Part shown: positions 2,972 to 54,712 of the stretch, piece by piece
Layout of the letters: every line of letters begins with the position of its first letter
How positions within the stretch are numbered: the first letter of the stretch is position 1
Assembly (NCBI GenBank): GCA_041694815.1
Contig: JBGFSC010000006.1
Span: 1-64,000 of the forward strand
Origin: Elusimicrobiota bacterium
Lineage (GTDB): Bacteria > Elusimicrobiota > Elusimicrobia > UBA1565 > JACRDR01
Reading direction: 5' to 3'
DNA length: 64,000 nt
The notes under the pieces: model-generated
Told to the model about the DNA's origin: nothing
What the model saw: the letters and a program-made list of their open reading frames with translations, nothing else
Database searches by the model: none
Program-made: the position numbers and the translations under genes

Positions 2972-3351
2972 ATGACATTTAAGCGTCGGGGATACTTTTC
3001 CTCTAGAAGAAAATCTTGCCCGGCCCGTTCACGGCGCTTCGCGGGGTCCCTTTCGAAGAGACGGTTAAGGATCGATCCTTCTATGGTCGTCTCGTAGAAA
3101 ACGCTGTCGGTGCGGCGCTCATTAATGCCGGGGAGACCGTTTTCTATTGGTCCGACAGGGACAAGGAACTCGATTTCGTTGTGCAGCGAGGCACGGAGCT
3201 CTTGGCGGTCGAAGTCACGGCGGGACATAAAAAAAACGCAGTACCGGGCCTAAAAACGTTCCAGCGTCGTTATCCAGAAGCAAAGGCCGTCCGTATCGGC
3301 GGTGTCCAGGCCGACATTTCTCTGGAGCGCTTTCTGGAATCCGGATTCTAA
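2972..3351 (+). pseudogene. Internally deleted AAA+ ATPase/DUF4143 gene (only the first codons and the C-terminal nuclease-like part remain)
   Basis: ATG 2972 gives MTFKRR. A different frame carries GRLVENAV...FYWSDRDKELDFVV...LAVEV, typical of a DUF4143 C-terminus. No Walker motifs. Confidence 0.65.
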
Positions 3352-3410
3352 AAATCAGCTCGAAGTTAAAAATTAGAAGATGGCATTCTATATTTCAATG
3401 CTCGATGATT

Positions 3411-4577
3411 TTAGAGCATTTCCTGGAAAACAGATATAAAACTTTCCATGGAAAACTGACGATCCCAGAGCGCGCGCAACTGCAGTTTGGCGAAGGGACG
3501 CAGCCGCGGGTCCGTCCGCAGTGCCGCCTGCTTCAAGAATTCGATGCGCTCCGAGCCGACTTGGCTCGTGCGTTTTTCCGAATCGCTTAAGGCCGATGCG
3601 GCGGCCGCGAGAGCGGCGCCGGCATACGGGCGCAGCAATCGTTCATCGAAGAGATAGAACTCCAGCTCGAAGAGGCGTTTGGGTTCTCGGGCTAATGACA
3701 AAATGCGGCGGAGTTCCGTCCCCTGCGCGGCGAAGGCGGCGCACTGTGCCTCGAGGCGCTCTAGGCGGCGGCGCATCGATTCATCGTATCGTCCCTGCGC
3801 GGCGTAAATTTGCTTGAGGGCATCGACGGCCTCGCGCGCGTGCTCCAGGCCGAGGCGCTGGGTGGTGACATCCCAATATTGCAGCAGGTGATAGCCGAAG
3901 GCGAGCCGGCGTCGCGCCTCCACTTCCGCCGATACCAGGTTTCCCGCCCGGCGTTGCTCGTCCGCGCGTTGAGCGAAGACCTCCGCGAGGCGGCTGGCCG
4001 CCGTCAGTATAGTCAGATGCTCACTGTAACCGTCGGCGCTCTCTGTCGTCCATGACGCGTAGGGCTTTTCCACGCCGCGGCATGAGGCGCCTGCTTCTAG
4101 CGCCAAAAGAGACGCTTTATGCCGGCCCTCTTCGAGGCGCCTTCGCGCCCAAAGTCGCCGCCCGTAATCGGACAGCGCCAGGCGCCCGGCCTTTTCGTAG
4201 AACGAGCCCGCGTCGCAGTCTCGCTGCTCCGGCAGGAAGGCCTCGATCTCCGCCGGGGCCTCCAAAGGCTCGGGACGGTAGGCGGGCGCCGCCGCCCGCG
4301 GCGGCGGACCGAGGCCCTGGGATCGCACGACCGCGATCTTAAGGGAAAATAGGAAGCCCAGGCAGCTCGCCCATAGCAGGTGCCCCGCCAGGAGAAGCCC
4401 GCGCGTGTAGCGGTCATGGCGCACGGGGGCCCCGGGGAGCAGGGAGGCGAGCCGGAAGGCTCGCTCGATCAAGCGGGCGTTCAAGCGGGTGCGCGAGAGG
4501 CGGCGGCGGATCGCCTCGTCGGCTCGGCGCAGCCGAGCCCTGCGGATGCATTGCGCCAGGCGAAAGGGATCGACCAT
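3411..4577 (-). CDS. Hypothetical membrane-anchored alpha-helical protein
   Basis: 388-aa ORF, one TM near residues 60-83. Confidence 0.6.
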   Translation of the reverse strand: MVDPFRLAQCIRRARLRRADEAIRRRLSRTRLNARLIERAFRLASLLPGAPVRHDRYTRGLLLAGHLLWASCLGFLFSLKIAVVRSQGLGPPPRAAAPAYRPEPLEAPAEIEAFLPEQRDCDAGSFYEKAGRLALSDYGRRLWARRRLEEGRHKASLLALEAGASCRGVEKPYASWTTESADGYSEHLTILTAASRLAEVFAQRADEQRRAGNLVSAEVEARRRLAFGYHLLQYWDVTTQRLGLEHAREAVDALKQIYAAQGRYDESMRRRLERLEAQCAAFAAQGTELRRILSLAREPKRLFELEFYLFDERLLRPYAGAALAAAASALSDSEKRTSQVGSERIEFLKQAALRTDPRLRPFAKLQLRALWDRQFSMESFISVFQEML

Positions 4578-4640
4578 GGCTCGGAGACATTAAACCGATT
4601 CGGAATAAAGCCTTATGGACGATTATGCTACGATCATGCG

Positions 4641-5147
4641 ATGGGATCTCCGACGGTCGAGGAGCTGATCCGTCTCCATGACCTTAAACCACATCCGGAA
4701 GGCGGCTATTACAAGGAAACGTATCGTGCCCCTGCGCTCTGCGAGCGATCGGCGCTGCCGCCGGGATTTAAGGGAGACCGAAATTTCTCCACGGCCATCC
4801 TATTCCTGCTCCCAGGAGGGGCGACGTCCAAGCTGCACCGCATCCCGGCCGACGAGATGTGGCATTTTTATCTCGGCGACCCGCTGACGGTGGTGCAGAT
4901 CTCACCGCGGGGGCGGGTCGAATTGATCCGTTTGGGCCATGATTTGGGCTCTGGCCTGGCCCTGCAGCACGTGGTGCCGGCCGGTTATTGGTTCGGGGCC
5001 TACTGCAACCCCGGCGGGGCCTATTCCCTGGTGGGCTGCACCGTGTCGCCGGGCTTCGATTTCGCTGATTTCGAGCTCGGCAAGAAAGAAAATCTCTTAA
5101 GAGAGTTCCCGGCCGCGCGGGCCATCATCGAGCATTTGGGGCATTAG
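4641..5147 (+). CDS. Cupin_5 (DUF985) family protein
   Basis: LKPHPEGGYYKETYR, STAILFLL, HRI.ADEMWHFY.GDPL, LVGCTVSPGFDFADFE. Confidence 0.92.
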   Translation: MGSPTVEELIRLHDLKPHPEGGYYKETYRAPALCERSALPPGFKGDRNFSTAILFLLPGGATSKLHRIPADEMWHFYLGDPLTVVQISPRGRVELIRLGHDLGSGLALQHVVPAGYWFGAYCNPGGAYSLVGCTVSPGFDFADFELGKKENLLREFPAARAIIEHLGH

Positions 5148-5940
5148 CCCCGTACCTATAAAAGCCTTGGCCGGACTTCTTGCCTAATGCGCCGGAGCCG
5201 ACTTTTTCAACCAGCAGGGGGCAGGGGCGGTACTTTTCGTCGCCGAGCTGCCGGTGCAGGGTCTCGAGTATGGCCAGGCAGATATCGAGGCCGATGAAGT
5301 CGGCCAGGGCCAGCGGGCCCATCGGATGACCCATGCCCAATTTCATGACCGTATCGATGTCCTCGGCCGAGGCCACCTTCTCGTGTAAGGCCCAGCAGGC
5401 CTCGTTGATCATCGGCATGAGTATGCGGTTGGCGATGAAACCCGGGGCGTCACGGGAGACGACCGGCGTCTTTCCCAAGGCGATCGCCACGGAACGAGTC
5501 GTCTCGAAGGCCGTCTCGGAGGTCTCGTCGGCGGGGATGATCTCGACGAGCTTCATCACCGGGGCGGGGTTCATGAAGTGCATCCCGATCACCCTGTCCT
5601 GGCGGCGGAGCCCCTCGGCGATCTTGGAGATGGGCAGCGAGGAGGTATTGGAGGCGAGCACCGTCTCCGGCATGCAGGCGCGTTCGAGCTCGGTGAAGAG
5701 GGCCCGCTTGGCGCCCAAGTCCTCGACGATCGCCTCGACTACGAACTCAGCCCCCGAGGCGTCGGCGATGCGCTCCGACGAGGCGACCCTAGCGGCGTCC
5801 TTGATGCGGCCCATGGCCTTTCGCAGCGCCTCCGGGTCCTTGTCGATGAGCGTCGTTCGGTAGCCGGACTGGGCGAAGAGCTGGGCGATGCCTCGTCCCA
5901 TGGTGCCGGCGCCGATGACGGCGACGCGCTGGATCAGCAT
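5125..5940 (-). CDS. hbd: 3-hydroxybutyryl-CoA dehydrogenase
   Basis: GAGTMGRG Rossmann motif, LASNTSS, GMHFMNP, PGFIANR, HPMGPLALADFIGLD. Confidence 0.92.
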   Translation of the reverse strand: MLIQRVAVIGAGTMGRGIAQLFAQSGYRTTLIDKDPEALRKAMGRIKDAARVASSERIADASGAEFVVEAIVEDLGAKRALFTELERACMPETVLASNTSSLPISKIAEGLRRQDRVIGMHFMNPAPVMKLVEIIPADETSETAFETTRSVAIALGKTPVVSRDAPGFIANRILMPMINEACWALHEKVASAEDIDTVMKLGMGHPMGPLALADFIGLDICLAILETLHRQLGDEKYRPCPLLVEKVGSGALGKKSGQGFYRYGANAPNAR

Positions 5941-5978
5941 CCGGCGGTGTTAACGGCGCGGGCCGCGCGTTCCGACGG

Positions 5979-6003
5979 AGGCAATGCCTCGGGTCGTCGC
6001 CAG
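5979..6003. repeat. Half copy of a small dispersed hairpin repeat
   Basis: 25 nt aggcaatgcctcgggtcgtcgccag, identical to 23890-23914. Confidence 0.75.
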
Positions 6004-6032
6004 CGGCTTATAGACGACAGGACCCGCGCCGC

Positions 6033-22482: not shown

Positions 22483-23826
22483 ATGGATCAGCCCGCCGGG
22501 GCTTCAGACGACGCGCTCGGGGCTAAAAGCTCCGAGCGCGTCGTCGCTTTTCTGCTGTTTCTCTGGCTTTTTTCCATCATCTGTTCGTATTACATCCTGC
22601 GCCCCGTCCGCAGCGCGCTGATCCTCTCGGAGTTCGGGCCCAAGGCTCTCCCCTGGGCGTACATGGGCACGGCGCTGTTTACCGGCATCGCGGTCTGGAT
22701 TTACACCCAGTTCACGTACCTGCCGCGTAAGACGCTGCTTACCCGCGTGATCCTGTTTTTTATCTCCAATTTCGCCGTGTTGTGGTGGATCGTCAGCAGG
22801 CGCATCCCTTGGTCGGCCGGCATTTTTTACGTCTGGACGGACATTTTCTCCATCATGGCCGTGACGGTTTTTTGGATGTACGTAAACGACGTCTTTCCCT
22901 CGAAGTCCGCCAAGCGGAGCTTCGGCATCATCGGTTCGGCAGGCCCGGCCGGCGCCATCGCCGGCGCCGCCTTGATCAAAATTTTCGTCCGCCGTGTGGG
23001 CGTGGAGCAGATGCTGCTGGTCGCTGGCGGATTCTTCGGCTTAGGGCTGTTGATTTTTTGGGCGCTCGAGTTCCTCACCGGTGGACGATCGGCTGAGCGC
23101 AAGAAGGCGATAGAGAAATTCGAGCAATACAATTTTTCCGAGTTTTCCAGCTTGATGCGTTCCGTGGCGCGATCAAGGGTGCTGACCCTGTTGACGGTCG
23201 CCGTGTGCTTCGAGCGTTTCGCGCCGGATTTCGTTGATTACGTGTTTTCGGCGGCCCTGCATCATGCCTATCCGGACAAGCTCGGCTACGCGGCCGTCTT
23301 CGCCACCTTCGAGTTCTGGCGCAACGTGCTCGTGTTCATCGCCACGCTGTCGCTCACCTCGACCATCCTGCGCACGCTCGGAGTGCACGTGGCCATTACC
23401 GCCGTGCCGATGACCATCCTCATCGGTGGCGCGGCCTACGCGCTGTTCCCGTTCCTGGGGGTGGCCATCGCCTTGAAGGGCTTGGAGGAGGGCCAGCGGC
23501 ATGCGTGGTTTAAGGCGGGCAAGGAAGTGATCTATACGGCCACGCATTCCGACGTCATCTACAAGGTCAAGGGCTATCTCGAGATGTTCCTCTACCGTTT
23601 TTCGCGGGGTCTGGCTGGCCTCATCATCTTGTTCTTGACCAGCGGTCTGGGTCTGGGCGCCGTCGGCGTGGCCTGGGCCGTGGTCCCGCTGGCCGCGCTG
23701 TGGGCGGTCGTGACCTGGAAGCTGGGCAAGGCGTACGAAACCAGCGAGGCCGGAGCGGCCGATAAAGAGGAGCCCGCTCTCCCCTTGGGCAAAGAGGCGT
23801 CAATATCTCAAGGTGCCAGGGATTGA
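22483..23826 (+). CDS. NTT/TLC-family (ATP/ADP translocase-like) MFS-fold transporter
   Basis: About 12 TM; YYILRPVRSAL, FYVWTDIF, FW..VNDVF...AKR.FG.IG..G..G, KEVIY......YKVKGYLEMFLYR match NTT-family signature spacing. Confidence 0.78.
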   Translation: MDQPAGASDDALGAKSSERVVAFLLFLWLFSIICSYYILRPVRSALILSEFGPKALPWAYMGTALFTGIAVWIYTQFTYLPRKTLLTRVILFFISNFAVLWWIVSRRIPWSAGIFYVWTDIFSIMAVTVFWMYVNDVFPSKSAKRSFGIIGSAGPAGAIAGAALIKIFVRRVGVEQMLLVAGGFFGLGLLIFWALEFLTGGRSAERKKAIEKFEQYNFSEFSSLMRSVARSRVLTLLTVAVCFERFAPDFVDYVFSAALHHAYPDKLGYAAVFATFEFWRNVLVFIATLSLTSTILRTLGVHVAITAVPMTILIGGAAYALFPFLGVAIALKGLEEGQRHAWFKAGKEVIYTATHSDVIYKVKGYLEMFLYRFSRGLAGLIILFLTSGLGLGAVGVAWAVVPLAALWAVVTWKLGKAYETSEAGAADKEEPALPLGKEASISQGARD

Positions 23827-27300: not shown

Positions 27301-27406
27301 CCCCGAGGAAGGCATCGGGGGCCACTGCCAGTACTGCGCCTATTCCGGGGCCTGCCGCAAGGCCCACGCCCCCACGCGCGCGAGGGCTCAGCGGGCCGGC
27401 CTATGA
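24383..27406 (+). CDS. addB: AddB-like helicase/nuclease subunit
   Basis: Degenerate helicase N-terminus; RCPFRFF...GRIDRLD...VIDYKS...CQYCAYSGAC (4-Cys Fe-S nuclease). Confidence 0.85.
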   Translation: MAPRLFCGAFQPALEDAFCERLESLRPGPGRRVMVVAPSRRMAERLERLIAFERGLGFLELRVHTFYSLALEILTSCGPEPWILAADAQIQELLVRGLLTSSRSLSRGLAGAYSSSLKDLADAGVDPESLRLHFAEWFEEPQRSLLNSLLELLQAYERRRRETGLASSFDLVQRATRVVEEGRENLLGGYQEILYYGFYDLTGAQADFFNAVAGAYPCSVFFPYVKGYPAFKFVERFYELRLSRGSGARHLPPDWGGRALGEGLGCLFNPGRQASLPEGRLRLINVSGSRDEVWATAKGILAAREEDPSLSFDEIGVVARSLEPYRALLAEVFEENEIPFSMEEGEPLLRHPLAKLALNLLNLARMDFPASAVQDLLRSPYLRVKAFGSAQRQESACRVIAALGIHSGWSQWEGIFGAQAGRDPDSKAIWEWLSSLRQSLRVASPPSWAGASAHWMTLLQDHFHVPVGDPAAGVWEAMLAATQELATFDRAAAGADYPEMLEALERRWRGRAIPAPDRRGVRVLGAMDARGHSFRRLFLIGLQEGVFPRQVREDPLLPDDLRARLAHPAGYWIRPKLEGYDEERLLFALLVSSASERLVCVYQRSDDAGRATVPSSYLRELCRACGVDFSGEANRRVPRQPLVKVRESPLLSWSPDEMALAACAAGSDPAPALSALGEEAGALAEVLRRSAELNRQGGPGPMDGVVGPPRHYLRRYRARGRSPSELQEYTRCPFRFFMSRVLQIPEPEEAAQRGALSAERRGRLYHAALRRFHSRLGESGYWSAQAADWVPVLEEAIEAEMGAASWKTLGLYPVLWEAIRRTMTEYLREFVSWDLAELRRSGFKPARFEEEVSCTVDGLALQGRIDRLDVDAAGGRFRVIDYKSRSSRRSLMEEIAELRKLQLPLYLAMAEASSLGGKDAKAAGGALYGIEAEGDGARVESLGSTDFERLRRGLWEDLKEYDRLIAKGFFPIRPEEGIGGHCQYCAYSGACRKAHAPTRARAQRAGL

Positions 27407-30400
27407 CTGAGGCATTGCTAGACCAGCCGGCCCGCGACGCGGCGCGCTTCGAGCTGGGGCGCAACATCGTCGTCGAGGCGGGCGCCGGCACCGGCAAGAC
27501 ATCGCTTCTGACCGAGCGCATCCTGTTCCTTTTGGCGGCCGGAGGCCCGCAAGGCCGGGGGATCGACATTACTCGCATCGTGGCGCTCACCTTCACCGAG
27601 AAGGCCGCCGCCGAGATACAGTGGAGGCTCTCCTCGAGGCTCGCGGACCTGACGGCGGCGATTGACGGCACCTTGCGCGACCCGGGCCGGCTGCAGGAAT
27701 GCCGGCGATGGATTTCGGAAGTCGGGCGGCGTTTCGGCCGTCAGGGAGAGGAGTTGCGGCGCGCTCTGGCGGAGGCCAGCGAGAAAATGGAGCGAGCCTC
27801 TATCGGCACCATCCATCGCTTCGCCGCGCAGCTGTTGCGCCTGCATCCCTTGGAGAGCGGCGTCGACCCCGCCTTCGAGGTGGACCCGGGGCCCGCCTTC
27901 GAGGAAAATTTCGAGTCGCATTGGCAGCGCTGGCTCGTGGAGGAGCTCGGCGAAGAAGCGCCGCGGCGCGAGTCCTGGCTCGAGCTGCTGGCCATCGTCG
28001 ACTTGGAGGATCTAAGGCTCTTAGCGCGCGCGCTATGCTCCGAGGAGTGCGCGGGCGCGACGCCTGCATCGCCTCAGCTGGAGCGCCGCCTGCGCGCCTT
28101 GGCCGAGGCCTTCGAGACCTTCGCGCGCAAGCCCGCGCCCGCGCGCAGCAAGGTACAAGAGCGGTGCCTGCAGGCGAAGGAAAGGCTGCGCCGCCTCGCG
28201 GAGGCTTTTTCCGGCGGGGGGGCTTTGGCTCGGCGACTTCCGGCGCCGCTTAAGGTCGGGCAATGGCCGCAGGCCTGGGGGGAGGGCGAGGAGAGGGAGC
28301 TCTTCGAGGCGGGCGCGTGGCTGGCCGAGCGCGCCTCGGCCGAAAGCGAGAGTCTGTTGCGCCGTGCCGCCGGGCTGCTGGAGCCTTTTTGCAGGCGTTT
28401 TCGAGCGGAATACAGCAGGCGCGGCCATGTGGGCTTTTCGGGCCTGTTGCGGCACGCGCGGGACCTGGTGCGCGACGATCCCGACGTCCGCTCGAGGCTC
28501 AAGCGCCGCTTCGACGTTCTGCTCATCGACGAGTTCCAGGATACCGACCCCCTGCAGGGCGAGCTGCTGCTGTTTTTGGCCGAACGGCCCGGCGACGCCG
28601 CGGCGCAGTGGCGGAAAATACGCCTGGAGCCCGGGCGCCTGTTCATCGTCGGGGATCCTAAGCAGTCGATCTATCGTTTCCGCGGAGCCGACATCCGCGC
28701 CTACGAGGAGTTCGCGCGCCTCCTGCTCGAGCAGGGCGCTCTTCGCTGCGACCTGCAGACGAGTTTTCGGAGCCATTCGGGGGTGATCGCTCCGATCAAC
28801 GCGGTTTTCGCCTCCGCCATGCGGGCCAAGGCCGGACTGCAGCCTCCATACCTCCCGATCCATCCGCGTCCGGACGGCGGCGGCTCGGCCGGGGTGGAGC
28901 TTGTCGTCTTCGAGGAGGCCGACGAGCCGGGGCCGCGTGCCGAGGCCCTGCGCCGGGCGGAGGCCGCGTGGATCGCGCGCTGGATCTCCGAGCGGGACGC
29001 GCGTTGGAAGTTTCGGGACGTCGCGATACTCATGCGCTCGACGAACGCCTTAGACATCTACCTTTCGGCGCTCAGGGCCCAGGGAATCCCGTACGCGGTC
29101 GAGGCGGACCGCCGATTCTTCGGTACCCAGGAGATACTCGATTGCGTCAATCTGCTGAGGGTCCTGGAGGACCCCGGCGACGCTATAGCGCTGGTGGGCC
29201 TGCTCCGTTCGCCGGCCGCGGCCTTAAGCGACCGGGATATCCTGGAGCTGAGGGAATCCGGTTCTCTTTCGATATTCGCGGATCCACCCGAGGGTCTGGA
29301 CCGCGAAGCGCGCCGGCGCGCTTGCGCGCTCTTTGATGAGTTGCGCGGGCTGCGCGAGCGGGTGGGCCGCGAGCCTTTGGCGGATTTCGTGCGCCGCGCG
29401 ATGCGGCGCACGCGTATGACGGAGCTTTGCGCCCAGGCGTATCACGGCGAGCAGACCGTCTCGAACCTGCTCAAGTTCCAACGCATCGCCGACGAGGCCG
29501 CAGACACGCGGGGCAGCACCTTGCGGGAGTTCCTGCTGCAGCTGGGCCGCTCTATCGAGGATTCGGCGGAGGAGGGGGAAAGCCCTCTGGCCGACGATCA
29601 TCTCGACGCCGTGCGCATCCTGACCATCCATAAGGCCAAGGGTTTGGAGTTCCCAATCGTATTCTTGCCCAATCTGGGGGCGCCGATCCGCTCCGGCGAA
29701 CCGCCGGTTTTCATGGCCGAGTGGCGCACGCAGGCGGCCGGATTCCGCCTTCCCAAGGCGAAGGCCGCGGATGCGGCCATGGCGCTGCTCCAATGGGATG
29801 AGAACCGCCGGATCCGCGAGGAATCCGTGCGCCTGCTCTACGTCGCCATGACCCGCGCGCGCGAGCGGCTGTTCCTTTTAGGCGCGGAGGCCCCCGGCCA
29901 TGCGGGTACTTTCTCTAATATATTGGCCGCGGCCGGAGCCTGGCCCCAGGGGCAAGCGGGTTCGTTGTCCATAGGCTCCCATTCCGTGCCCGTGCGGCGA
30001 GTCTCCGGGGACCGCCTTGCCGCCCCGCGGAGAAGGCGCGGCGAGGCCTGGAGCGTCGATGCGCGGGCCTGGTCGAGGGTATGGGCCGCCCGCCGCGCCG
30101 AGCGGTCGCGATGGAGCGGGGGCCTTTTCGCCAGCCCTACCGACTATCAGGCGGAGATCCAGAAGCTCCCGGCGCTCGAAGAGGGCGCGGGGCCGCCGGC
30201 GGATTGGATCGGCCGGCTCTGCCACCGCGTGCTGGAGAAGTGGGATTTCGCGCGCCCGCCGGATTTGGGCGAGGCGCTGGCCTCGGCCTGCCGCAACCTC
30301 GCCTGGCTGGAATCGGGCGTCCCGTGGAAGGCCGTCGCCGAGGAGGGATGGAGGATACTCGAAGGGTTCTTGGAGTCGGAGGCGGCCCGGGAATTGGCCG

Positions 30401-30675
30401 ATTCGGAGATACTGGGCCGCGAAATGCCCTTCTTATATCCTCGCGAAGGACGGGTGATGCGCGGCAGCCTGGACCTGCTCTACCGCCGGGGCGGAAAGCT
30501 TTGGGTAGCCGATTATAAGACGGGGAAACCGCTGCTGGACATCCGCGAAGCGCTCCGCCGCTACGGCCCCCAGGCCGGGGCCTATGTGGAGGCCGTCGAG
30601 CGCGGCCTGGGAGAAAGGCCGGGATTCAAATTATTGTGGCTGCGCGGCGGAAAATCCATCGAGCTGCCGATTTGA
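27403..30675 (+). CDS. addA: AddA-like UvrD helicase/nuclease
   Basis: [62 protein letters not shown]...ADYKT. Confidence 0.92.
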
Positions 30676-42681: not shown

Positions 42682-43469
42682 GATTCTCCGTCATCATGCC
42701 GACTTGGAACGAGGGGGCCCAGATCGGCTCCGCGCTCAAGCGCCTGCGCGAAATCTCGGACGAGTCCTCGATGGAGATCATCCTGGTTGACGGGGGAAGC
42801 ACCGATAAGACCGTCGAGCACGCCAAGGACTGGGTCGACCAGCTGAAGGTGCTGGAATCCCCCAATCGAGGAGCCCAGCTGCACGCCGGGGCGGGGCTGG
42901 CCAAGGGTGACCTGTTATTCTTCCTGCATGCCGACACCCAGCCTCCCGGACATTGGCAGGAGCGCTTGGAGAAGGCGTGGCTGGGAGACCCGCACGACTC
43001 CTTGGCGGCGACGGTGTTCTCGGTGGATTACGGTTCCCGGCTTCCCTTGCGGCTCGTGGCTGCGGGCCAAAACTGGCGCGCCCGATGCTTCGGCCTGGCG
43101 TACGGGGATCAGGGTTTTTGCGTCTCCTCCGAGATTTACGCCAAGACGGGCGGCTTCCCCCAGCAACCACTCATGGAGGATATCGAGTTCTGCAACCGGC
43201 TGCGGCGCTTCGGCCGCATCCAGCTCCTGCCGGAGCTCATACGGCCCTCCGCGCGGAGGCTGCAGCGTTCGGGCCCATTGCTCAATTCCCTGCGCAACCA
43301 ATGGATATTCCTGCGCTATGTGTTGGGCGCCGACCCGCAAAAACTATGGCGCCATTACTACAAGAAGGACTTGAAGGAAGCGCCGCCGCCGGCGCCGGAC
43401 ACCGGGGATCCGAGCCGGCATCCCTTCGCGTATTTACGCGAAAAAAAGAGCGAAAACAGGAAGAGGTGA
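42678..43469 (+). CDS. GT2 glycosyltransferase (TIGR04283-like)
   Basis: SVIMPTWNE, VDGGSTD, FLHADT, YGDQG, PLMEDIEF, SARR. Confidence 0.88.
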   Translation: MRFSVIMPTWNEGAQIGSALKRLREISDESSMEIILVDGGSTDKTVEHAKDWVDQLKVLESPNRGAQLHAGAGLAKGDLLFFLHADTQPPGHWQERLEKAWLGDPHDSLAATVFSVDYGSRLPLRLVAAGQNWRARCFGLAYGDQGFCVSSEIYAKTGGFPQQPLMEDIEFCNRLRRFGRIQLLPELIRPSARRLQRSGPLLNSLRNQWIFLRYVLGADPQKLWRHYYKKDLKEAPPPAPDTGDPSRHPFAYLREKKSENRKR

Positions 43470-43470
43470 A

Positions 43471-43695
43471 ATGATCAAGCTACTGATCGCCGCCGTCGTC
43501 TGCGCCGCGCTGTATGTGGGCTTGTCGAAGTTTTGGACGAAGGAAAAGGTGATGGAAAGCGCCCCGGTGCAGTACACCCAAGGCCTGCAGCAGAACGTGG
43601 AGAAGGCGGAAAAGTCCGCCGCGGCCGCCAACCAAAAGATCGCCGAGATGCAGCGGCAGGCCGACGCCTTCCGCCAACCATCTTCCGGCGAGTAG
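43471..43695 (+). CDS. Small membrane-anchored hypothetical protein
   Basis: SD gaggtg, N-terminal TM, coiled coil. Confidence 0.65.
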   Translation: MIKLLIAAVVCAALYVGLSKFWTKEKVMESAPVQYTQGLQQNVEKAEKSAAAANQKIAEMQRQADAFRQPSSGE

Positions 43696-43712
43696 CTGTA
43701 TTTCTGAAAACC

Positions 43713-43775
43713 TAGTACTTTAGGCCTATCCTGGCTGGGAACAAAAAAAGGTCCAAAATTGGACCTTTCGACCCA
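43713..43775. promoter_or_regulatory. Palindromic boxes upstream of the 43832 gene
   Basis: tagtac-ttta-ggccta (43713) and ttggac-ctttc-gaccca (43759, +46); degenerate site at +23. Confidence 0.65.
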
Positions 43776-43831
43776 TGCGCTCAGCCGATTTTCAAGGCAT
43801 ATTTTTATTGAATGGCAGTTTGGGAGGAAAA

Positions 43832-44356
43832 ATGAATTCAAAATCGTTCGTTGTTGCCGCTCTCATGACCTTATGTTGTGTTTCGGGCAGCAATGCCGTC
43901 GATAATAGCGATATCGCCGAGGATATTCGGAAAATCCACAAACACTTTCAGGAGAATGGATTCCGGCATCAGCCGGCCGGATTGCCGCCTCTCAACGGGA
44001 GACGCCAGGACTGGGTTGTCGTGGATCGAATGAACGAGATCATCAAGCATTGCATCACTTATAACTATTGGATCTTGAACCGGCCGGGGGGATTGAACGT
44101 TTTCGGAATGAGCCATACGGATCTGTCCCGTTCGTCCATCGTCTCTTATCTGATGAGCATAGACAGCTATGTGATGGATGCTCGGGAGAAGGCGTGGAAC
44201 CCGAATGCTCGGAATATTCTACAAACGCTTCACGAGCACATCATGCTGCGTGCCCATGCAGCGCCGTTGCGTAGCAAAGACGGTCATTTGCTGACCATTT
44301 ATCATGAGATTTTGGATCTTGCCCAAAAGGCGAAAGAAGCTGAACGTGGTTATTGA
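43832..44356 (+). CDS. Secreted hypothetical protein (lower GC than its surroundings)
   Basis: SD gggagg; signal MNSKSFVVAALMTLCCVSGSNA. Confidence 0.75.
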   Translation: MNSKSFVVAALMTLCCVSGSNAVDNSDIAEDIRKIHKHFQENGFRHQPAGLPPLNGRRQDWVVVDRMNEIIKHCITYNYWILNRPGGLNVFGMSHTDLSRSSIVSYLMSIDSYVMDAREKAWNPNARNILQTLHEHIMLRAHAAPLRSKDGHLLTIYHEILDLAQKAKEAERGY

Positions 44357-44384
44357 TTAGTTCGGTTCCGCACGTCTTCCTAAC

Positions 44385-44447
44385 TAGGCATAAAGGCCTA
44401 ATCATTCCTGGGCCGAAAGACCCGGACTCTTTAGGCCCTTTGTATCC
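44385..44447. promoter_or_regulatory. Three tandem palindromic boxes upstream of the PK-like gene
   Basis: taggca-taaa-ggccta (44385), tgggcc-gaaa-gacccg (44409), taggcc-cttt-gtatcc (44432). Confidence 0.75.
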
Positions 44448-44482
44448 TGCGCCCGACCCCTTTCGCCTGTAAAGTAAAAGGG

Positions 44483-45616
44483 ATGACGCTACGTGTCGCG
44501 TTCGCCTTGTGGTTGGCTTGCTCGCCTGGGGGGTGGGCCCAGGATGCGATTGATCAACTTCGGGAAGCCGCGTTGGCATCAGCTTCCCGGCAGCCCGAGG
44601 CGCCGCCATATGCGGTCGGGCGCTCAATCGGGCTCATCGTTGCCCTGGGACCGGCGTCTTTCGATCCCGAGGTAATCAAAGGGATCGTCCGGGCCGGGGC
44701 CGTCGGGCTTCGGCTCAATATGGCGCACATGGACCGGTCTAAGACGGGGCTAGTGAGCGGAGCGATCGCCGAGGCCCTCAGGGCCGTTGGCCGCGCGACA
44801 ATGCCCGTGCTCTATGATTTGCCCGGTGGCAAGGTGCGTACGGGTCCCGCGCCCGAGGCAGGAAGCGTCGCTCTCCAGGCGGGCCAAGCCTTCGTCTTGT
44901 TCTACGGCGGAAAGCTCGTCTCCTCGACGGCGGATCAAGCGAGCATCGACTATCCGGATTTAGCACCCCATATCAAAATCGGCGATCGCGTGCGGATATA
45001 TCAAGGCGAGATCGAGTTGCTGGTCACCGCGATGTCCGCGGGACGCATCGAGACGAGGGTGCTTCGAGGCGGGAATCTGCGCGGGCATGCGACCGTCGAC
45101 TTCCCCGCGCGGGAACTTCCGTTTCCGCGCATGCGCGAGGAGGATCGGCAAAAACTGCGGATCGCCGTGGAGAACGGCGCCCTGTATATCGGCGTCTCCA
45201 TGGTGCAGAGGCCGGATCAAATGGACGCGATGCGAGAGGAGCTGCTCCGGTTGGGGGCTCCGCATGCCAAGCTGGTGGCCAAGATCGAGACTTTGTCCGC
45301 GCTGGAAAACCTGGACGCTATCGTCGAGCGATCGGACATGGTCATGATCGCGGGAGGAGATCTTTCGGCCGCCGTCGGCGACCAGGAGGCGCTATTGGCG
45401 GCCGAAGGCAAAATCGCCGAGGCGGCCGTTCGGCACGGAAAGCCCCTTATCGCGGCGACGATCTATGAAGGCCCCGACGCCCCGCGGAAAGTCAGGCGGG
45501 CGGCCTCCTTCGGCGCCGATTACATCATGCTCGAGTCGACGGCGATGGCCTCCGACCCCGTGGGCCTCGTTTCCGGTTTTCAGGCCGTCTTAGGCGAGAG
45601 CGGCGCGAGGTTCTGA
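44483..45616 (+). CDS. Divergent pyruvate kinase-like protein with signal peptide and no C-terminal regulatory domain
   Basis: LGPAS, RLNMAH, DLPGGKVRT, AKIET..ALENLDAIV..SDMVMIAGGDL, PLIAAT, ADYIML. Leader MTLRVAFALWLACSPGGWA. Confidence 0.85.
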   Translation: MTLRVAFALWLACSPGGWAQDAIDQLREAALASASRQPEAPPYAVGRSIGLIVALGPASFDPEVIKGIVRAGAVGLRLNMAHMDRSKTGLVSGAIAEALRAVGRATMPVLYDLPGGKVRTGPAPEAGSVALQAGQAFVLFYGGKLVSSTADQASIDYPDLAPHIKIGDRVRIYQGEIELLVTAMSAGRIETRVLRGGNLRGHATVDFPARELPFPRMREEDRQKLRIAVENGALYIGVSMVQRPDQMDAMREELLRLGAPHAKLVAKIETLSALENLDAIVERSDMVMIAGGDLSAAVGDQEALLAAEGKIAEAAVRHGKPLIAATIYEGPDAPRKVRRAASFGADYIMLESTAMASDPVGLVSGFQAVLGESGARF

Positions 45617-47128
45617 TTTTTTAGGCTCATTAGGGTCGAGCACCGGCCCCAGCGCCCAGGACAGCGCGAAGGTGCCAAAGGTTCCCAGGATCACCAGCCA
45701 GCTCCAGCCGAGCGGGAACACCTTGATCTCGGAGAGATGTAGCAGCCAAGCGTTGAGCATGGCCATCAAGACCATCGAGGCCACGTTCGCGTTATCGGCT
45801 CGCCTCTGAGTCAACAGGCCGAAAAGAAAGACGCCCAAAAGCGAGCCGAAGGTGACGCCTCCGATCTTGAAGGCGAGCCAGAGCATTCGGTCGAAAAAAC
45901 TGAAGTAATAGGCGATGGCGCCGAGCAGAACCGCGAAGACGGCTACCGCCGCGCGCGAGACGATAAGGTAATGCCGCTGGCTGGCGTCGGAGCTAATTAG
46001 CGGTTTATAAATGTCGGTGACGAATACCGCGGTCAACGAGGCCAGCGGCGAATCAATGGAGGCCATGATGATCGCGGCCAGCACGAGGCCTCGGAGCAGA
46101 GACGGCATCACCGTGGCGGCGAAGTGAGGATAAATCTTGTCGAGTTTTTCGGGAAGCGCCATGCCTGGGTTGAGCTTGTAGAAGGCGACGAGCTCGGTGC
46201 CGATGAACATGAACAGGATCAAGACCACGAAGCTGCCGAGTATGCTCCAGACCATGGTCCTCTGGCTCTCGCCGCGGGTCTCGACGGTCAATAATTTCTG
46301 CATCAGTTCGTGGTCGGTCCCGAAGGCGGCCATGGAGCCGAAGAAGCCGTTGAGTACGGCCACCCAGAGTATGTTGGGGTCCGAAAAGAATTTCTTGAGG
46401 AAGCCCGGCTCGCCCAGGGGAGGGCCCCAATTCCACAGCTGAAGCTGCCCCGCCTCGCCGGCGATCTTGAAGACGGCGGCCATGCCGCCCTCGATATTCC
46501 AGGCGAGGTAGAAGACGGTCGCCAGGCCCGCCCCGATGAAGGTCAGCGCCTGGAGCACGTTGGTCCAGACCACCGCCTTGATGCCCCCGTACCCGATATA
46601 AAGCATGCCGATGAGGGAAAAGAGCGCGATGACGGGGACCAGGTGCCAGCCGAGCAGCACGCTGACCGCCAGACAGGCGGCCATCAGGCGGACGCCGGAG
46701 GCGAGCAATCGGGTCACGAAGAAGAAGCAGGTCGCCGTGTATTGGGTGCGCCTCCCGAAACGGTGGAGCAGGAACTCGTAGATCGTCGTGCACTTGAATT
46801 TATAGAAGGCCGGTATGAAGAGGAAGGCGATCACGATCTTGGAGGAAGCCGATCCGATGAAGAATTGGGCGTAGTTCCAATTCTCGCGGAACGTGGTGGC
46901 CGGAACCCCGACGATCGTCATGGCCGATATCTCGGTCGCGACGATGGAAAGGCAGGCGACGAACACGGGGATCTCGCGCCGGCCGAGGAAAAAGTCCTCG
47001 GTGGAGAACTGCCTCCTGCCGAAATACCAGCCGACGAAAAACATGAAGGCGAGGATCCCGCCGACGACGGCCATGTCGGCGCCGCCGAGATTGGTCTGAC
47101 CCGAGAAGTACGACGTCCAGTCGTTCAA
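45590..47128 (-). CDS. Sodium:solute symporter
   Basis: EDFFLGRR, SIVATEISAMT..GVP, TIYEFL..RFG, GGIKAVVWT, GTDHELMQKLL; TTG start overlapping the upstream stop is inferred. Confidence 0.9.
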   Translation of the reverse strand: MNDWTSYFSGQTNLGGADMAVVGGILAFMFFVGWYFGRRQFSTEDFFLGRREIPVFVACLSIVATEISAMTIVGVPATTFRENWNYAQFFIGSASSKIVIAFLFIPAFYKFKCTTIYEFLLHRFGRRTQYTATCFFFVTRLLASGVRLMAACLAVSVLLGWHLVPVIALFSLIGMLYIGYGGIKAVVWTNVLQALTFIGAGLATVFYLAWNIEGGMAAVFKIAGEAGQLQLWNWGPPLGEPGFLKKFFSDPNILWVAVLNGFFGSMAAFGTDHELMQKLLTVETRGESQRTMVWSILGSFVVLILFMFIGTELVAFYKLNPGMALPEKLDKIYPHFAATVMPSLLRGLVLAAIIMASIDSPLASLTAVFVTDIYKPLISSDASQRHYLIVSRAAVAVFAVLLGAIAYYFSFFDRMLWLAFKIGGVTFGSLLGVFLFGLLTQRRADNANVASMVLMAMLNAWLLHLSEIKVFPLGWSWLVILGTFGTFALSWALGPVLDPNEPKKSEPRAALA

Positions 47129-47640
47129 CGCGTCTCCAGGGTCTCGAGCAGGGCCCGGCAGAAGGCGGGGAGGTCGTCGGGCTTGCGCGCGGTGATGAGA
47201 TTGCCGTCCACGCACGTTTCCTCGTCGACCCAGCGCGCCCCGGCGGCCTCCAGGTCCGCGCGGATCGCGAAGAAGGAGGTCACGGTCCGGCCCCGCAAGA
47301 TGCCGGCGGAGACGAGCACGGAGCCAGCATGGCAGATGGCGGCGACGGTCTTGCCAGCCTTGAAGCAGTCGCGGACCAGGGCGACGACGCTCTCGTGCCT
47401 CCTGAGGAAATCGGGGGCCCAGCCTCCCGGGATCAAGACGGCGTCCAGATCGCCGACCTTCACGTCGCCCGCCGAAAGCTCCGCCTCGATCGGGTATCCG
47501 TATTTTCCCTTGTATAGCTTCGCCGAGCCGGAGCCGATCACGCGGACGCGGTGACCGGCTTCCCGAAGCCGGTAATAAGGGTACCAGACTTCGAGATCCT
47601 GGTAATCCTGCTCGACGAGCAGGCCGATGGTCTTAGCCAT
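47125..47640 (-). CDS. PfpI/DJ-1 family protein
   Basis: YQDLEVWYP, IPGGWAPD.LR, AAICHA, VDGNLITAR.PDDLPAF. Confidence 0.92.
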   Translation of the reverse strand: MAKTIGLLVEQDYQDLEVWYPYYRLREAGHRVRVIGSGSAKLYKGKYGYPIEAELSAGDVKVGDLDAVLIPGGWAPDFLRRHESVVALVRDCFKAGKTVAAICHAGSVLVSAGILRGRTVTSFFAIRADLEAAGARWVDEETCVDGNLITARKPDDLPAFCRALLETLETR

Positions 47641-51469: not shown

Positions 51470-53287
51470 TCAGAATTCGGGCAACGATTGACGCAGGTTT
51501 TGAAAGCGCCTCCAGGGATCTATGCCTCGCAGGCGCGGCTCGATGTTGTCGATCGTGTAAAAATCCGGTCCTGGCAACTCGGCCAGCTCCTTCCAGGAGA
51601 GCGGAGTAGCGATGGGTGCTCCGTTCTTGGCGCGGGTCGAGTACGCCGCGACGGCCGTTGCTCCCCGATTGTTGCGGAGGTAGTCGATGAATATCTTGCC
51701 GCGGCGCTGAGCCTTGCCTAGCCGGGCAGTATAGCGGTCGGGTTTTTCCAGCGCGAGGCTTTCGGCCACCGCCTTAGAAAAGGCCTTGACCCGTTCCCAG
51801 CCGTCCTTCGGGCGCAACGGTACGACTATATGCAGACCTTTGCTACCGGTGCTTTTAGGGAAGCTCTCCAGTCGAAACCCCTTGAGCTTATCGCGTAGGG
51901 CGAAGGCCGCTTCCACGACCATGCTCCAGGCCACCCCCGGCGCCGGATCGAGATCGAAGGTCATGAGATCGGGCTTGTCGACCTGCTTGATCCGGCAGCC
52001 CCAGGGATGCAGCTCGAGCGCGCCTAATTGCGCCAGATAGATCAGGCCCGCGAGATCCTTGATGTAGATGTACGTCCGGGCTTCCCCCTTTTCGTCTATC
52101 TCGATGCGGCCGATGGAGGGGGGAAAGGCCTCCTGCGCGTGCTTCTGAAAGAAACAATCGCGCCGGTGGCCTTCCGGGCAGCGCAGCAAGGCCAGCGGCC
52201 TCCGAGCCACGTGGGGGAGCATCCGTTCGGCGGCCCGCGCGTAATAATCCGCCAAAGCCCGCTTCGTGATTCCCTGCTCGGGATAGAGCACGCGTTCGGG
52301 ATGGCTCAGACGGATGCCCGCGATGATCGGCTCCGGCCGCTCGAGCACGATCTCCTCCGGGCCCTTATCCTCGCGGAGGCCCTGAAAGCGCGCTTGGCGC
52401 AGCCGGCGGTCGCGGGTCCATTCGGCGAAGTCGATCTCGGCTACCAATTCGGGCCTCACCCAATGCGCCTTAGTGGCGCCTGTTCCCTCGGGAGGCCTGG
52501 AGAAGGGGCAGGTCGCGCTGCGAATGGCCGAGAGCTTGCGGCCCAAGTCGCGGAGCATGCCCTCCGTGAAGCCCGTGCCGACCTTGCCGCAATATTCGAT
52601 TCCCCCGTCGCGTCGCAGGCCCAGGAGCAGCGAACCGAACGTCGAGCGCGCGCCGCGAGGCTCGGTGTATCCCCCGATGAGGAATTCCTGCCGCTGGATG
52701 CATTTGACCTTGAGCCAGCGGCTCGAGCGGCCCGAGACGTACGGCAGGCCCTTGCTTTTGGAAACGATGCCCTCCAGGCGGAGGCGGCAGGCTTGACGGT
52801 AGACCTGGGTCCCGCGCCCCTCCACGTGATCGCTGTAGCGCAGCTTCCCGCCGGCCGCCTCGCGCAGGAGCTCCGCGAGGCGGCGCTTGCGCTCGACTAG
52901 GGGCAGGGGGCGCAGGTCCTTGCCGTTTAGGTGGAGCAGATCGAACAAATAATAAACCAGGCGGCTGGGGTCCCGGGCGCTCAAGGCCTCCTGCATGGCG
53001 TGGAAGGAGGAGGCCCCTCGTTCGTCGAGCGCGACGATCTCGCCGTCGACGATCGCGGACGCCGCGGGCAGCCTCGCCAAGGCCTCGGCCAGCGGCGAGA
53101 ACCTGTCCGTCCAATCGTTGCCCTTGCGCGTCAGCAGCCGGGCTCTGCCGGATTCCAGGAAGCCCAGGGCCCGATATCCGTCGAACTTGACTTCGTGGAT
53201 CCAGCCTGGACCATCGGGGACCTTTTCGGCGAGCGCGGCCAACTGGGGCGCGAAGAACGCGGGCAGCGGCGGCGCTTTAGGGGCCAT
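51470..53287 (-). CDS. ligD: NHEJ DNA ligase D (ligase plus primase-polymerase domains, no phosphoesterase domain)
   Basis: EVKFDGYR, DGEIV, EGIVSK, WLKVK; then SHPERVLYP, RCPEG, FFQKH, FDLDP, GSKGLH, IFIDYLRN. Confidence 0.95.
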   Translation of the reverse strand: MAPKAPPLPAFFAPQLAALAEKVPDGPGWIHEVKFDGYRALGFLESGRARLLTRKGNDWTDRFSPLAEALARLPAASAIVDGEIVALDERGASSFHAMQEALSARDPSRLVYYLFDLLHLNGKDLRPLPLVERKRRLAELLREAAGGKLRYSDHVEGRGTQVYRQACRLRLEGIVSKSKGLPYVSGRSSRWLKVKCIQRQEFLIGGYTEPRGARSTFGSLLLGLRRDGGIEYCGKVGTGFTEGMLRDLGRKLSAIRSATCPFSRPPEGTGATKAHWVRPELVAEIDFAEWTRDRRLRQARFQGLREDKGPEEIVLERPEPIIAGIRLSHPERVLYPEQGITKRALADYYARAAERMLPHVARRPLALLRCPEGHRRDCFFQKHAQEAFPPSIGRIEIDEKGEARTYIYIKDLAGLIYLAQLGALELHPWGCRIKQVDKPDLMTFDLDPAPGVAWSMVVEAAFALRDKLKGFRLESFPKSTGSKGLHIVVPLRPKDGWERVKAFSKAVAESLALEKPDRYTARLGKAQRRGKIFIDYLRNNRGATAVAAYSTRAKNGAPIATPLSWKELAELPGPDFYTIDNIEPRLRGIDPWRRFQNLRQSLPEF

Positions 53288-54114
53288 CAATGCAGGGTTC
53301 GGGAGGCGTGAGCGCCTCGATGTCGCGTTTCCCCATGAGCCAGGCTCCGCTTGAGCAGCTGCATGATGTCGGCCGGCGGCGTCGGCGTTTTAGTCTCGGC
53401 CGGTAGGGCTAGGGGTTCGACCTTGCCCTTTTCGGCCTTTTTCCGTATGAAGGCGAGCAGTTCCTCGCGGTAGCGGTCCTTGTATTGCCGCGGGTCCCAA
53501 AGCGCGGAGAGATCGTCGATGAGGCGCTCGGCCATCTTGAGTTCCCCCTCGGATATCTTGAGCTTGCGCGGGTCGCGGGCGGGCAATTTAAGGTGGCCAG
53601 GATCGCGCAACTCCTGCTGGTAGCGCAGCAGGTTGAGCACCAGCGCCTCTTTATGCGGCACGAGCGCAGCCAGGTGCTCCTTGGCGTGCAGGACCACCGT
53701 GGCGATGCCGACCTTGCCGCTGCGCTTGAGCGCCTCGCGCAGCAGCGCGTAGGCCTTGTCGCTGCCTCCCATCGGCTCTAGGTAATACGGCTTGTCGAAA
53801 TAGACCGCTTCGATGGCCGATCGCTCAACGAAGGCCGAGATGTCGATGCGCTGGCTGCGCCCCGGAGAGGCGCGTTTCAAGTCCTCATCCGTCAACAGCA
53901 CGTACTCCCCATCGGAGATCTCGTATCCCTTGACGATCTCATCCTTGCCCACCGGCTCGCCCGTGCGTTTGTTGACCTTCCGGTAACCGACGGGGGACAT
54001 GTCGCGCTTGTCGATCCAGTTGAGGTTAAGCGCGTCCGGGTGCTCGCCCGGATGCAGCGCCACCTGGACATTCACCAGGCCGAAGCTGAGGCTTCCCTTC
54101 CATACGGCGGCCAT
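53287..54114 (-). CDS. ku: Ku protein
   Basis: WKGSLSFGLVN, IVKGYE, YFDKPYYL, AYALLREAL, YKDRYRE. Confidence 0.95.
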   Translation of the reverse strand: MAAVWKGSLSFGLVNVQVALHPGEHPDALNLNWIDKRDMSPVGYRKVNKRTGEPVGKDEIVKGYEISDGEYVLLTDEDLKRASPGRSQRIDISAFVERSAIEAVYFDKPYYLEPMGGSDKAYALLREALKRSGKVGIATVVLHAKEHLAALVPHKEALVLNLLRYQQELRDPGHLKLPARDPRKLKISEGELKMAERLIDDLSALWDPRQYKDRYREELLAFIRKKAEKGKVEPLALPAETKTPTPPADIMQLLKRSLAHGETRHRGAHASRTLH

Positions 54115-54124
54115 GTCGTCCCGC

Positions 54125-54712
54125 CTAGAAATGGAAATTCAGGCCGGCGGTCACCTGATGGCCCGCGTCGTCGAAGTCCTGGTTCGCGGTGGTGTTGGAG
54201 GCGTTGCGGCTGCGGATGTTCCCGATCCAGATATGCCGGTAGGTAGCGTCGATGGACCACTTTGGGTTCAAGAATATTTGCAGGCCTCCCCCGACATGCG
54301 GCCCGAAGCGGTTGTCGGTCTCATCGAAGCCTCCCGGACCCTCGACATGCGTGAAGTACCACCCGGCTCCCGCCAGAATGAACGGCGATATGCGGTGGCG
54401 GCCGGGCGTTAAGTACGCCAGCAGCGAGGCTTGGACCGGATAGATGTCGGCCCGCGTACCCGTGAAGGTCCGACGGCGATAATCGGCCGATCCCTCCAGG
54501 GCCCAGATGTTGCTTAAATGCAGGCGCAACTGGGCCCCCCCGAACCAATCGTCGCCGGTCCCTTGCCCGGTGTCCGCTTGGAACCAGGTCGCCCTTCCCC
54601 CGAGCGAGACTCCTCGATGCGGGTAGACGTCGTCGTAGTCCTGGGCGTAGGCGGCGCTGCCGCCCAGCGGCAAGAAGGAGAACAGCGCGAGAGCGCAAAA
54701 TGTAGATTTCAT
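54125..54712 (-). CDS. Outer-membrane beta-barrel protein
   Basis: Signal peptide, SPFILAGAGWY, GPHVGGGL, C-terminal AGLNFHF. Confidence 0.85.
   Translation of the reverse strand: MKSTFCALALFSFLPLGGSAAYAQDYDDVYPHRGVSLGGRATWFQADTGQGTGDDWFGGAQLRLHLSNIWALEGSADYRRRTFTGTRADIYPVQASLLAYLTPGRHRISPFILAGAGWYFTHVEGPGGFDETDNRFGPHVGGGLQIFLNPKWSIDATYRHIWIGNIRSRNASNTTANQDFDDAGHQVTAGLNFHF

Follow-up and report, generated by a model that had tools for sequence, protein, structure and literature searches.

Pyruvate kinase (PK) is among the most studied cytoplasmic enzymes, and to our knowledge all characterised proteins of its Pfam family carry out one and the same step of glycolysis. The genome of an Elusimicrobiota bacterium (assembly GCA_041694815.1) raises the question of what a PK-like protein might do with a predicted export signal at its N-terminus and no regulatory domain at its C-terminus. 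The gene lies at positions 44483..45616, on the + strand, of a stretch of 64,000 nucleotides (positions 1 to 64,000 of contig JBGFSC010000006.1), which is referred to below as the window; the genome (G000) comprises 2.77 Mb and is 97.8% complete. The main new finding of this study is that relatives of this protein are linked, by gene adjacency or by fusion, to an exported nucleotidyltransferase, and that the window gene is the exception. A sequence-only reading of the window, made without database searches, had placed the gene exactly and called it an exported, stripped-down PK homologue; the family to which it belongs, the nucleotidyltransferase partner and the family-wide loss of the equivalents of rabbit S361 and K206 lay beyond its reach and are new here.

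The open reading frame (ORF) encodes 377 amino acids followed by a stop codon, and corresponds to the A barrel and B lid of PK without the C domain. Pfam assigns the PK barrel family PF00224 to residues 49-326 (E 3.3e-40; 138.6 bits against a cutoff of 30) and finds no match to PF02887, the PK C-terminal domain; the protein stops at residue 377, after the last barrel helix and about 25 residues past the equivalent of the MLSGETA motif. Among PDB sequences, E. coli PykF matches best (1pky, E 3.2e-32); residues 51-346 align with its chain residues 6-300. An AlphaFold2 model, computed from a 14-row family alignment, has a mean predicted local distance difference test score (pLDDT) of 89.7 and a predicted template modelling score (pTM) of 0.83, and contains eight strand-helix units with an all-beta insertion at about residues 120-212, that is, a complete (beta/alpha)8 A barrel with its B lid. 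Only pyruvate kinases occur among the Foldseek matches listed, with query TM-scores (TMq) of 0.72-0.81 and identities of 23-29%. The barrel, the lid and the absence of the allosteric C domain, all of which had been proposed earlier, are thereby confirmed.

The first part of the barrel (residues 48-119, 44624..44839, +) carries R77, N79, H82, D112, L113, K117 and R119, including a loop of the K+-independent type, DLPGGKVR. It is followed by the lid (residues ~120-212, 44840..45118, +), which is all beta and has Ala203 at the position of rabbit K206, and by the second part of the barrel (residues ~213-377, 45119..45613, +) with S239, K267, E269, AGGDL (290-294) and A325-T326. Within the latter, residues 327-342 (45461..45508, +), IYEGPDAPRKVRRAAS, form a shortened stand-in for the QMLESM...PTRAE...DVANA segment, 10 alignment columns shorter than in canonical PKs, and the barrel ends with IMLESTA (348-354) and a final helix (359-372). 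The QMLxSM..PTRAE segment had been described as missing; the 10-column gap agrees with this, but a replacement is present and the barrel still finishes. Two other models recall parts of this architecture. NF005234 (PRK06739), a short-PK model of 352 positions, likewise has a barrel and lid without a C domain, but the window protein scores 132.3 bits against its cutoff of 564 and is not a member. The HpcH/HpaI aldolase/citrate lyase beta family (PF03328), which belongs to the same phosphoenolpyruvate (PEP)/pyruvate-binding barrel superfamily, gives a weak match to residues 225-342 (E 3.8e-4; 20.3 bits, cutoff 25); the window protein has a lid and the PK catalytic residues, and PK is clearly the nearer relative.

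Ahead of the barrel, residues 1-19 (44483..44539, +), MTLRVAFALWLACSPGGWA, read as a Sec signal peptide with predicted cleavage after Ala19, between GWA and Q. From the first in-frame start, MTLR makes a positive n-region, VAFALWLAC a short hydrophobic core, and SPGGWA, followed by QD, a small-x-small site. The 28-residue linker behind it (residues 20-47, 44540..44623, +) is modelled as a low-confidence helix and then disorder (pLDDT 51-77, below 50 for residues 35-45); it had been termed an Ala/Pro linker, and the linker stands, although it is Ala/Pro-rich only in part. By a heuristic criterion, a 10-residue Kyte-Doolittle mean of ~2.0 or more ahead of the barrel, a hydrophobic N-terminal leader is present in 20 of 22 members of the PK-like family, where it mostly ends in A-x-A, and in none of the 11 canonical PKs examined. 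The two leaderless members are P0015 and P0006, the latter a fragment whose contig edge falls within a fused upstream domain; in the fused protein P0042, described below, the leader stands at the extreme N-terminus, before the nucleotidyltransferase part. The PK part is free of cysteine in 10 of 20 family members, the window protein included, compared with 4 of 60 canonical PKs. A signal for Sec and signal peptidase I is thus plausible, with the cleavage site proposed earlier matched by leaders of the same type in the relatives, and the protein is probably exported. An outer-membrane beta-barrel protein encoded in the same window (54125-54712) points to a diderm host and hence to the periplasm as the first destination of such a protein. 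Two other routes were considered and rejected. A lipoprotein reading of L-A-C13 would leave too short a leader before the cysteine, with Arg4 inside the hydrophobic stretch, and the A-x-A sites of the relatives come without a lipobox; for twin-arginine translocation, the twin-arginine motif is absent from the family leaders examined.

In a word-based search against 5.8 billion proteins, 14 relatives of 347-504 amino acids were recovered at 43-52% identity, all with the PK barrel and none with PF02887; beneath them came ordinary PKs at no more than 34% identity. When 1.84 billion cluster representatives were searched exhaustively with a profile, 24,779 matches were obtained, among which eight full-length family clusters scored 397-547 bits and canonical PKs from 276 bits down. 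The intermediate range of 287-314 bits held P0046 (a 221-residue fragment, 314 bits), P0048 (298 bits; an exported member at greater distance) and, with ordinary PK repeats, the two long proteins P0047 (300 bits) and P0049 (287 bits). For ten family members, the clusters at 90% identity contain just 1-4 sequences each. The family as treated here comprises P0002-P0015, P0041-P0046, P0048, P0188, one gene of contig L003 (4335..5417) and the window protein; it is metagenomic and unnamed. None of 31 pattern matches in viral contigs encodes a relative, and the literature, within the library searched, yielded no account of a PK family that is exported or devoid of the C domain. On the evidence of these searches, the family of exported, C-domain-less PK-like proteins is very rare.

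A quick maximum-likelihood tree was computed with IQ-TREE from 58 rows, 21 of the family and 37 canonical, leaving aside P0011, P0014 and P0046 as near-duplicates or fragments. The family forms one side of a branch opposite the canonical PKs, with a Shimodaira-Hasegawa-like approximate likelihood ratio test (SH-aLRT) value of 100. The window protein is sister to the C-terminal half of P0042 (SH-aLRT 99), its closest member at 59% identity, and the two fall inside a clade of nine rows (SH-aLRT 95) that have the short loop in common. Their terminal branches measure 0.57 for the window protein and 0.48 for P0042. With the other metagenomic members the window protein shares clade, signal peptide and the motifs DLPGGK and GVSMVQ and, like them, it lacks the C domain and the equivalents of S361 and K206.

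In all four other members with readable flanks or full length, which lie on different branches of the tree, the PK-like part is linked to an exported nucleotidyltransferase. Two of these came from contig scans, in which the best 80 of at least 600 stretches from species-representative genomes and the best 80 of at least 598 from metagenomes were inspected, and in which L003 and L094, respectively, were the one family member among the best 80. L003 belongs to a metagenome-assembled genome labelled Haliangium ochraceum and placed by a tree tool in Kofleriaceae, Myxococcota; its PK-like gene (4335..5417) overlaps by 4 bases an upstream gene (3328..4338) for a nucleotidyltransferase of 336 amino acids with a signal peptide of its own. 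On the metagenomic contig L094, the nucleotidyltransferase P0189 (3044..4300) ends 12 bases before the PK-like P0188. In P0042, a complete ORF of 801 amino acids on a contig of 2,753 bases, a signal peptide and a nucleotidyltransferase domain are followed by the PK-like part within one chain, and in P0006 the 120 residues from the contig edge, which match the C-terminal part of P0189 at 40% identity, run straight into the PK-like part. The partner homologue P0195 and the PK-like P0015, carried on a single contig of 3,564 bases, probably make a fifth pair, judging by the size of that contig alone. In contrast to L003, L094, P0042 and P0006, the window gene has neither an adjacent nor a fused nucleotidyltransferase.

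The partner has no Pfam match even at E 5 and no meaningful sequence match in the PDB. GGS, R-D-x-D and one more Asp are nevertheless conserved across nine aligned partner sequences, as is typical of polymerase-beta-type nucleotidyltransferases. A model of the partner (pLDDT 89.0, pTM 0.84) retrieves class II CCA-adding and A-adding enzymes in a fold search (3h3a, 1vfg and 4wby; E ~2e-7, TM 0.43-0.50) as well as FAM46/TENT5 poly(A) polymerases, and its look-alikes in the ESM Atlas include PolyA_pol clusters (0.91). Two further observations concern these loci. P0188 (L094, 4313-5668) and P0012 bear a C-terminal extension of ~70 residues with faint helix-turn-helix matches (HTH_20 at E 0.08, Crp-like at 0.11; range 0.08-0.47), a hint at nucleic-acid binding. 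On L094, a gene for a B12-binding radical S-adenosylmethionine protein (5775-8084, +) lies directly 3' of the pair; it is not seen in L003.

The distribution of the family sets the window gene apart within its own phylum. Phylum-wide searches, in which the top five first-look candidates per genome were scored and a match at family level was taken as E <=1e-95 with the family profile, found such a match in one of 401 sampled genomes of the phylum, namely the window's own, which is likewise the only one among the 293 genomes with a completeness of 90% or more and a contamination of 5% or less. The 40 nearest relatives of this genome gave no family-level match, their best hits being ordinary PKs at 26-36% identity. 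The phylum of the L003 genome behaves similarly, with one of 401 genomes at family level (476 bits) and the next at 293.5 bits, about the canonical level. A canonical pyk elsewhere in the genome, which the sequence-only reading had suggested looking for, is present on contig C21; it encodes 478 amino acids with all the usual motifs and groups among the canonical PKs in the tree, far from the window protein. By these comparisons, the window gene is neither the pyruvate kinase gene of the cell nor a recent copy of it. Its composition is host-like (GC 0.646, z 0.1; GC at third codon positions (GC3) 0.759, z -1.0; relative to 42 window genes). Because the family is absent from the nearest relatives and nearly so from the phylum, and because the genome's own pyk groups with canonical PKs, the gene appears to be a horizontal acquisition, probably an old one that has been maintained since.

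The active site was compared in one alignment of 21 family rows with 61 canonical PKs (12 chosen from P0016-P0039, P0050-P0099 minus the giants P0055 and P0087, and the pyk of the window's own genome). The window protein has R77-L-N79-M-A-H82, K267-I-E269 and A325-T326, with A290-G291-G292-D293-L294 in place of ARGDL, all as read earlier. In window numbering, R77, N79, H82, D112, L113, K117, R119, D221, S239, K267, E269, A290, G292, D293, A325, T353 and A354 are kept in all 21 family rows; at position 326, 19 rows have T and two have S. The equivalents of rabbit R72, N74, D112, R119, K269, E271, D295 and T327 are all present in the window protein; we take these residues to provide phosphate and metal binding and the catalytic lysine. 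Rabbit numbers were mapped through the PykF alignment and the rabbit-muscle numbering in PMC8835810. The same paper describes L113/K117 as the signature of K+-independent PKs, in which a lysine takes the place of the monovalent cation (PMC8835810). The M. tuberculosis PK, an enzyme of this Lys117 type (PDB 5ws8), folds into the same barrel and lid (TMq 0.79 for 5ws8_A in Foldseek), and the K+-independent PKs have L113/K117 and the eight rabbit equivalents in common with the window protein. Unlike them, the window protein has an N-terminal signal peptide, no C domain and an alpha6'/PTRAE segment that is 10 residues shorter; the equivalents of S361, E363, Q328 and K206 are replaced, and identity is 25-34%.

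Other changes are shared across the family. The equivalent of M329, M in 58 of 61 canonical PKs, is F, Y or L; that of P116, P in 58 of 61, is G in 20 of the 21 rows; that of R245, R in 45 of 61, is Q in 20. The motifs DLPGGK, GVSMVQ and [KNE]-x-T-A (for S-G-E-T-A) are all found in the window protein. The R of ARGDL, invariant in the 61 canonical PKs, is G in three family rows, those of the window protein, P0042 and P0005, and the short loop occurs throughout the nine-member clade; as these distributions indicate, AGGDL and the short loop are features of the lineage and not private damage. In the window protein, the segment through which canonical PKs make their A-A subunit contact is altered. 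The PTRAE arginine lies at this contact in E. coli PykF, whose R292D mutant structure (1e0t) is among the sequence and fold matches; a different oligomeric state would be in keeping with its loss and that of the C domain. Taken over the alignment, the family pattern is one in which the PEP/metal side is frozen and the acceptor and proton-relay side remodelled.

The reading we favour, and hold tentatively, is that the window protein is an exported, unregulated, K+-independent PEP-dependent phosphotransferase on a PK scaffold, with a nucleoside diphosphate (NDP) as the likeliest acceptor, whose ancestors served a nucleotidyltransferase and which has been orphaned in this genome. The Sec signal peptide would take the enzyme out of the diderm cytoplasm, to the periplasm or beyond, and K117 would replace the K+ cofactor. 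The enzyme would most likely move the phosphoryl group of PEP onto a nucleotide-type acceptor, converting NDP to nucleoside triphosphate (NTP), as all the residues that bind Mg2+, PEP and the transferred phosphoryl group are kept; it would act constitutively, since it has no effector-binding C domain and its A-A contact segment is changed. Adjacency and fusion in the relatives suggest that its ancestral job was probably done alongside the nucleotidyltransferase, for which it might have made the NTP substrate where no ATP pool exists. In the window's genome the gene would be a horizontally acquired orphan without its partner. The gene, its fold, its place in the family, the pattern of residues, the linkage to the partner in relatives and the rarity of the family are shown by the data, and export, catalytic activity, the acceptor, coupling to the partner and horizontal transfer are what we infer. 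The effect of an unregulated PK within a cytoplasm, which bears on the earlier suggestion of a PEP drain in a target cell, is illustrated by an engineered B. subtilis Pyk without its extra C-terminal domain, which PMC11834443 describes as constitutive, preventing build-up of the PEP pool and causing pyruvate overflow; that mutant keeps the canonical C domain and the tetramer and is cytoplasmic, whereas the window protein is natural and predicted to be exported.

Several results weigh against this reading. All seven NCBIfam pyruvate kinase models match the window protein far under their cutoffs, the best being NF004491 (183.3 against 432), with TIGR01064 at 165 against 306.4. Residues invariant or common in canonical PKs are lost as well. 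The equivalent of S361, S in all 61 canonical PKs, is K, N or E in all 21 family rows (E351 in the window protein); that of E363, E in all 61, is E in nine of the 21 rows and is S352 here. Both residues presumably have a role in protonating enolpyruvate. The equivalent of Q328, Q in 55 of the 61, is G, N, I or A in the family (I327 in the window protein), and that of K206, K in 41 and R in eight of the 61, is A, M or I in all 21 rows (A203 here); in PMC4284704, K206 is described as shifting by 10.4 Å upon lid closure and coordinating the nucleotide ribose. In T-x-G-P, the Thr and the Pro are each present in all 61 canonical PKs; the Thr is variable in the family and the Pro kept in 13 of 21 rows. 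The nucleotide side is thus the least conserved part of the active site, and a true PK reaction is not assured.

Other objections concern setting and substrates. The partner was not found in the 97.8% complete genome with either the L003 protein or a two-row profile as query, the sole match being a leaderless, cytoplasmic CCA-type protein on contig C27 (E 3.6e-4), so that the proposed coupling cannot operate there. We are not aware of any extracytoplasmic source of PEP or NDP. Nucleotidyltransferases release pyrophosphate, not NDP, and simple NDP recycling therefore does not close. The host-like composition means that any horizontal transfer was not recent. Action inside another cell would be one way around the supply of PEP and nucleotides.

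Much of the same evidence bears on the chief alternative, that the scaffold has been neofunctionalised: it would still bind Mg2+ together with PEP or a different 2-oxo or enol acid, but would use a new acceptor or carry out other enolate chemistry, and the reaction would not be EC 2.7.1.40. What the partner nucleotidyltransferase uses or makes, perhaps the end of a nucleic acid, could then be the acceptor. The changes cluster on the acceptor/proton-relay side (K206, S361, E363, Q328 and T-x-G-P), with the PEP/metal side invariant; the new states are family-wide (GVSMVQ and DLPGGK in 20-21 of the 21 rows), which resembles selection for a new function; and the partner folds like nucleotidyltransferases that act on RNA 3' ends. 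The helix-turn-helix extension of P0012 and P0188 and the HpcH/HpaI aldolase match would point the same way, but both lie under any threshold. We regard such a change of reaction as somewhat less likely than the favoured reading. Against it, R119, H82 and the entire lid, which serve the nucleotide in canonical PKs, are kept in all 21 rows; the residue just before the K206 position is R, H or K in 20 of the 21 and could stand in for the lost lysine, and we know of no PF00224 member with a reaction other than that of PK.

The absence of the partner from the genome also suits an inactive leftover, a protein that lost its function after transfer and survives as an open frame or a binding protein, and at family-conserved positions the window protein has private states (A54, I327, E351 and S352, each in one of the 21 rows, alongside G291 in three); a look-up of sequencing runs for 43400-45700, which could have shown expression, listed none. 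Such a pseudoenzyme is nonetheless improbable: no break interrupts the 377 codons, none of the 11 core catalytic residues (R77, N79, H82, D112, K117, R119, S239, K267, E269, G292 and D293) has been lost, the terminal branch is of much the same length as in the sister P0042, the barrel is modelled with confidence along its whole length, and the host-like GC and GC3 suggest long residence with the frame maintained. A decaying pseudogene without homologues, which the sequence-only reading had named as one refutation, is accordingly not borne out, since homologues exist and the catalytic core is invariant across them. Least probable of all is that the protein is not exported, through use of another start or because the N-terminus is a membrane anchor or functionless, and acts as a second, unregulated PK in the cytoplasm. 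The hydrophobic region is short, at ~9 residues, there is no clear Shine-Dalgarno spacing ahead of the ATG, and a public gene call (P0001, 298 amino acids, window 44720-45616) begins at Met80. That start is likely mis-called, however: it would remove the first two barrel strands (residues 48-79), which align with all relatives and are modelled with pLDDT above 95, so that the true start must lie upstream of residue 48, and both the shared leader type with its A-x-A sites and the position of the leader in P0042, ahead of the nucleotidyltransferase part, speak for export. Of the functions that had been listed earlier, an unregulated PK and an enzyme of altered specificity are both more probable here than a pseudoenzyme; from the rest of that reading, the present data support predicted export, a protein made of barrel and lid alone and a missing allosteric domain.

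The surroundings of the window gene differ from those of its relatives. A 193-residue orphan ORF (43775..44356, +; likely start Met20, 43832) occupies the slot of the relatives' nucleotidyltransferase gene, yet it is unrelated to that enzyme: it shows no similarity to P0042 and no Pfam or NCBIfam match, and its best Atlas score is 0.80. Its N-terminus resembles a signal peptide (MNSKSFVVAALMTLCCVSGSNA, followed by VD), and its AT-rich composition is strongly atypical (GC 0.495, z -4.9; GC3 0.583, z -4.3); it may be a recent foreign gene placed directly 5' of the PK-like gene. Further upstream are an ORF of 74 amino acids with one N-terminal hydrophobic helix (43471-43695, +) and a palindrome of 10 pairs, GAAAGGTCCAATTTTGGACCTTTT (43746-43769), which resembles a two-way terminator. 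A promoter and terminator scan of 43300-45900 gave nothing usable on the + strand ahead of the PK-like gene. On the other side, a convergent gene for a sodium:solute symporter (45590..47215, -) overlaps the 3' end of the PK-like gene by 27 bases (45590-45616) and has orthologues in relatives at 60-67% identity. Six regions from the genomes of six relatives (three of 12-13 kb and three of ~4 kb) matched none of the 12 other window genes queried.

Elsewhere in the window, a membrane protein of 447 amino acids (22483-23826, +) has a partial, weak match to the TLC ATP/ADP transporters (E 2.2e-10, model positions 138-370 of 491); a nucleotide importer, if this TLC-like gene encodes one, would be of interest beside an exported PK-like enzyme. 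Two further gene pairs were also noted, namely LigD (ligase and primase-polymerase) and an adjoining Ku (51470-54114, -), the bacterial non-homologous end-joining pair, and an AddAB/RexAB-like pair made up of a PD-(D/E)XK nuclease (1007 amino acids) and a UvrD-type helicase-nuclease (1090 amino acids; together 24383-30675, +).

For annotation, these results carry a warning, as sources label the family members 'pyruvate kinase' and one public call truncates the window protein. Neither the fold nor the homology is unusual; what stands out is the architecture, the location, the changed rim of the active site and the partner. Together, the export signals, the dropped regulatory domain, the rebuilt acceptor side and the linkage to a nucleotidyltransferase point to extracytoplasmic PEP-driven phosphoryl or nucleotide chemistry. 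If the enzymes of this family are active, either PEP and nucleotides would be available outside the cytoplasm, or the pair would act inside another cell, or the PK scaffold would have gained a new reaction. A bolder proposal, which we consider unlikely but worth stating, is that the PK-like protein and the nucleotidyltransferase make up an undescribed exported two-enzyme module with a PEP-driven step of its own, which would carry out nucleotide addition outside the cytoplasm of the producer, in the periplasm, in vesicles or in another cell, where RNA ends might be tailed or blocked; the window gene would then be an orphaned copy. Were such a module to exist, the PK scaffold would have been recruited for extracytoplasmic or inter-cellular nucleotide chemistry.

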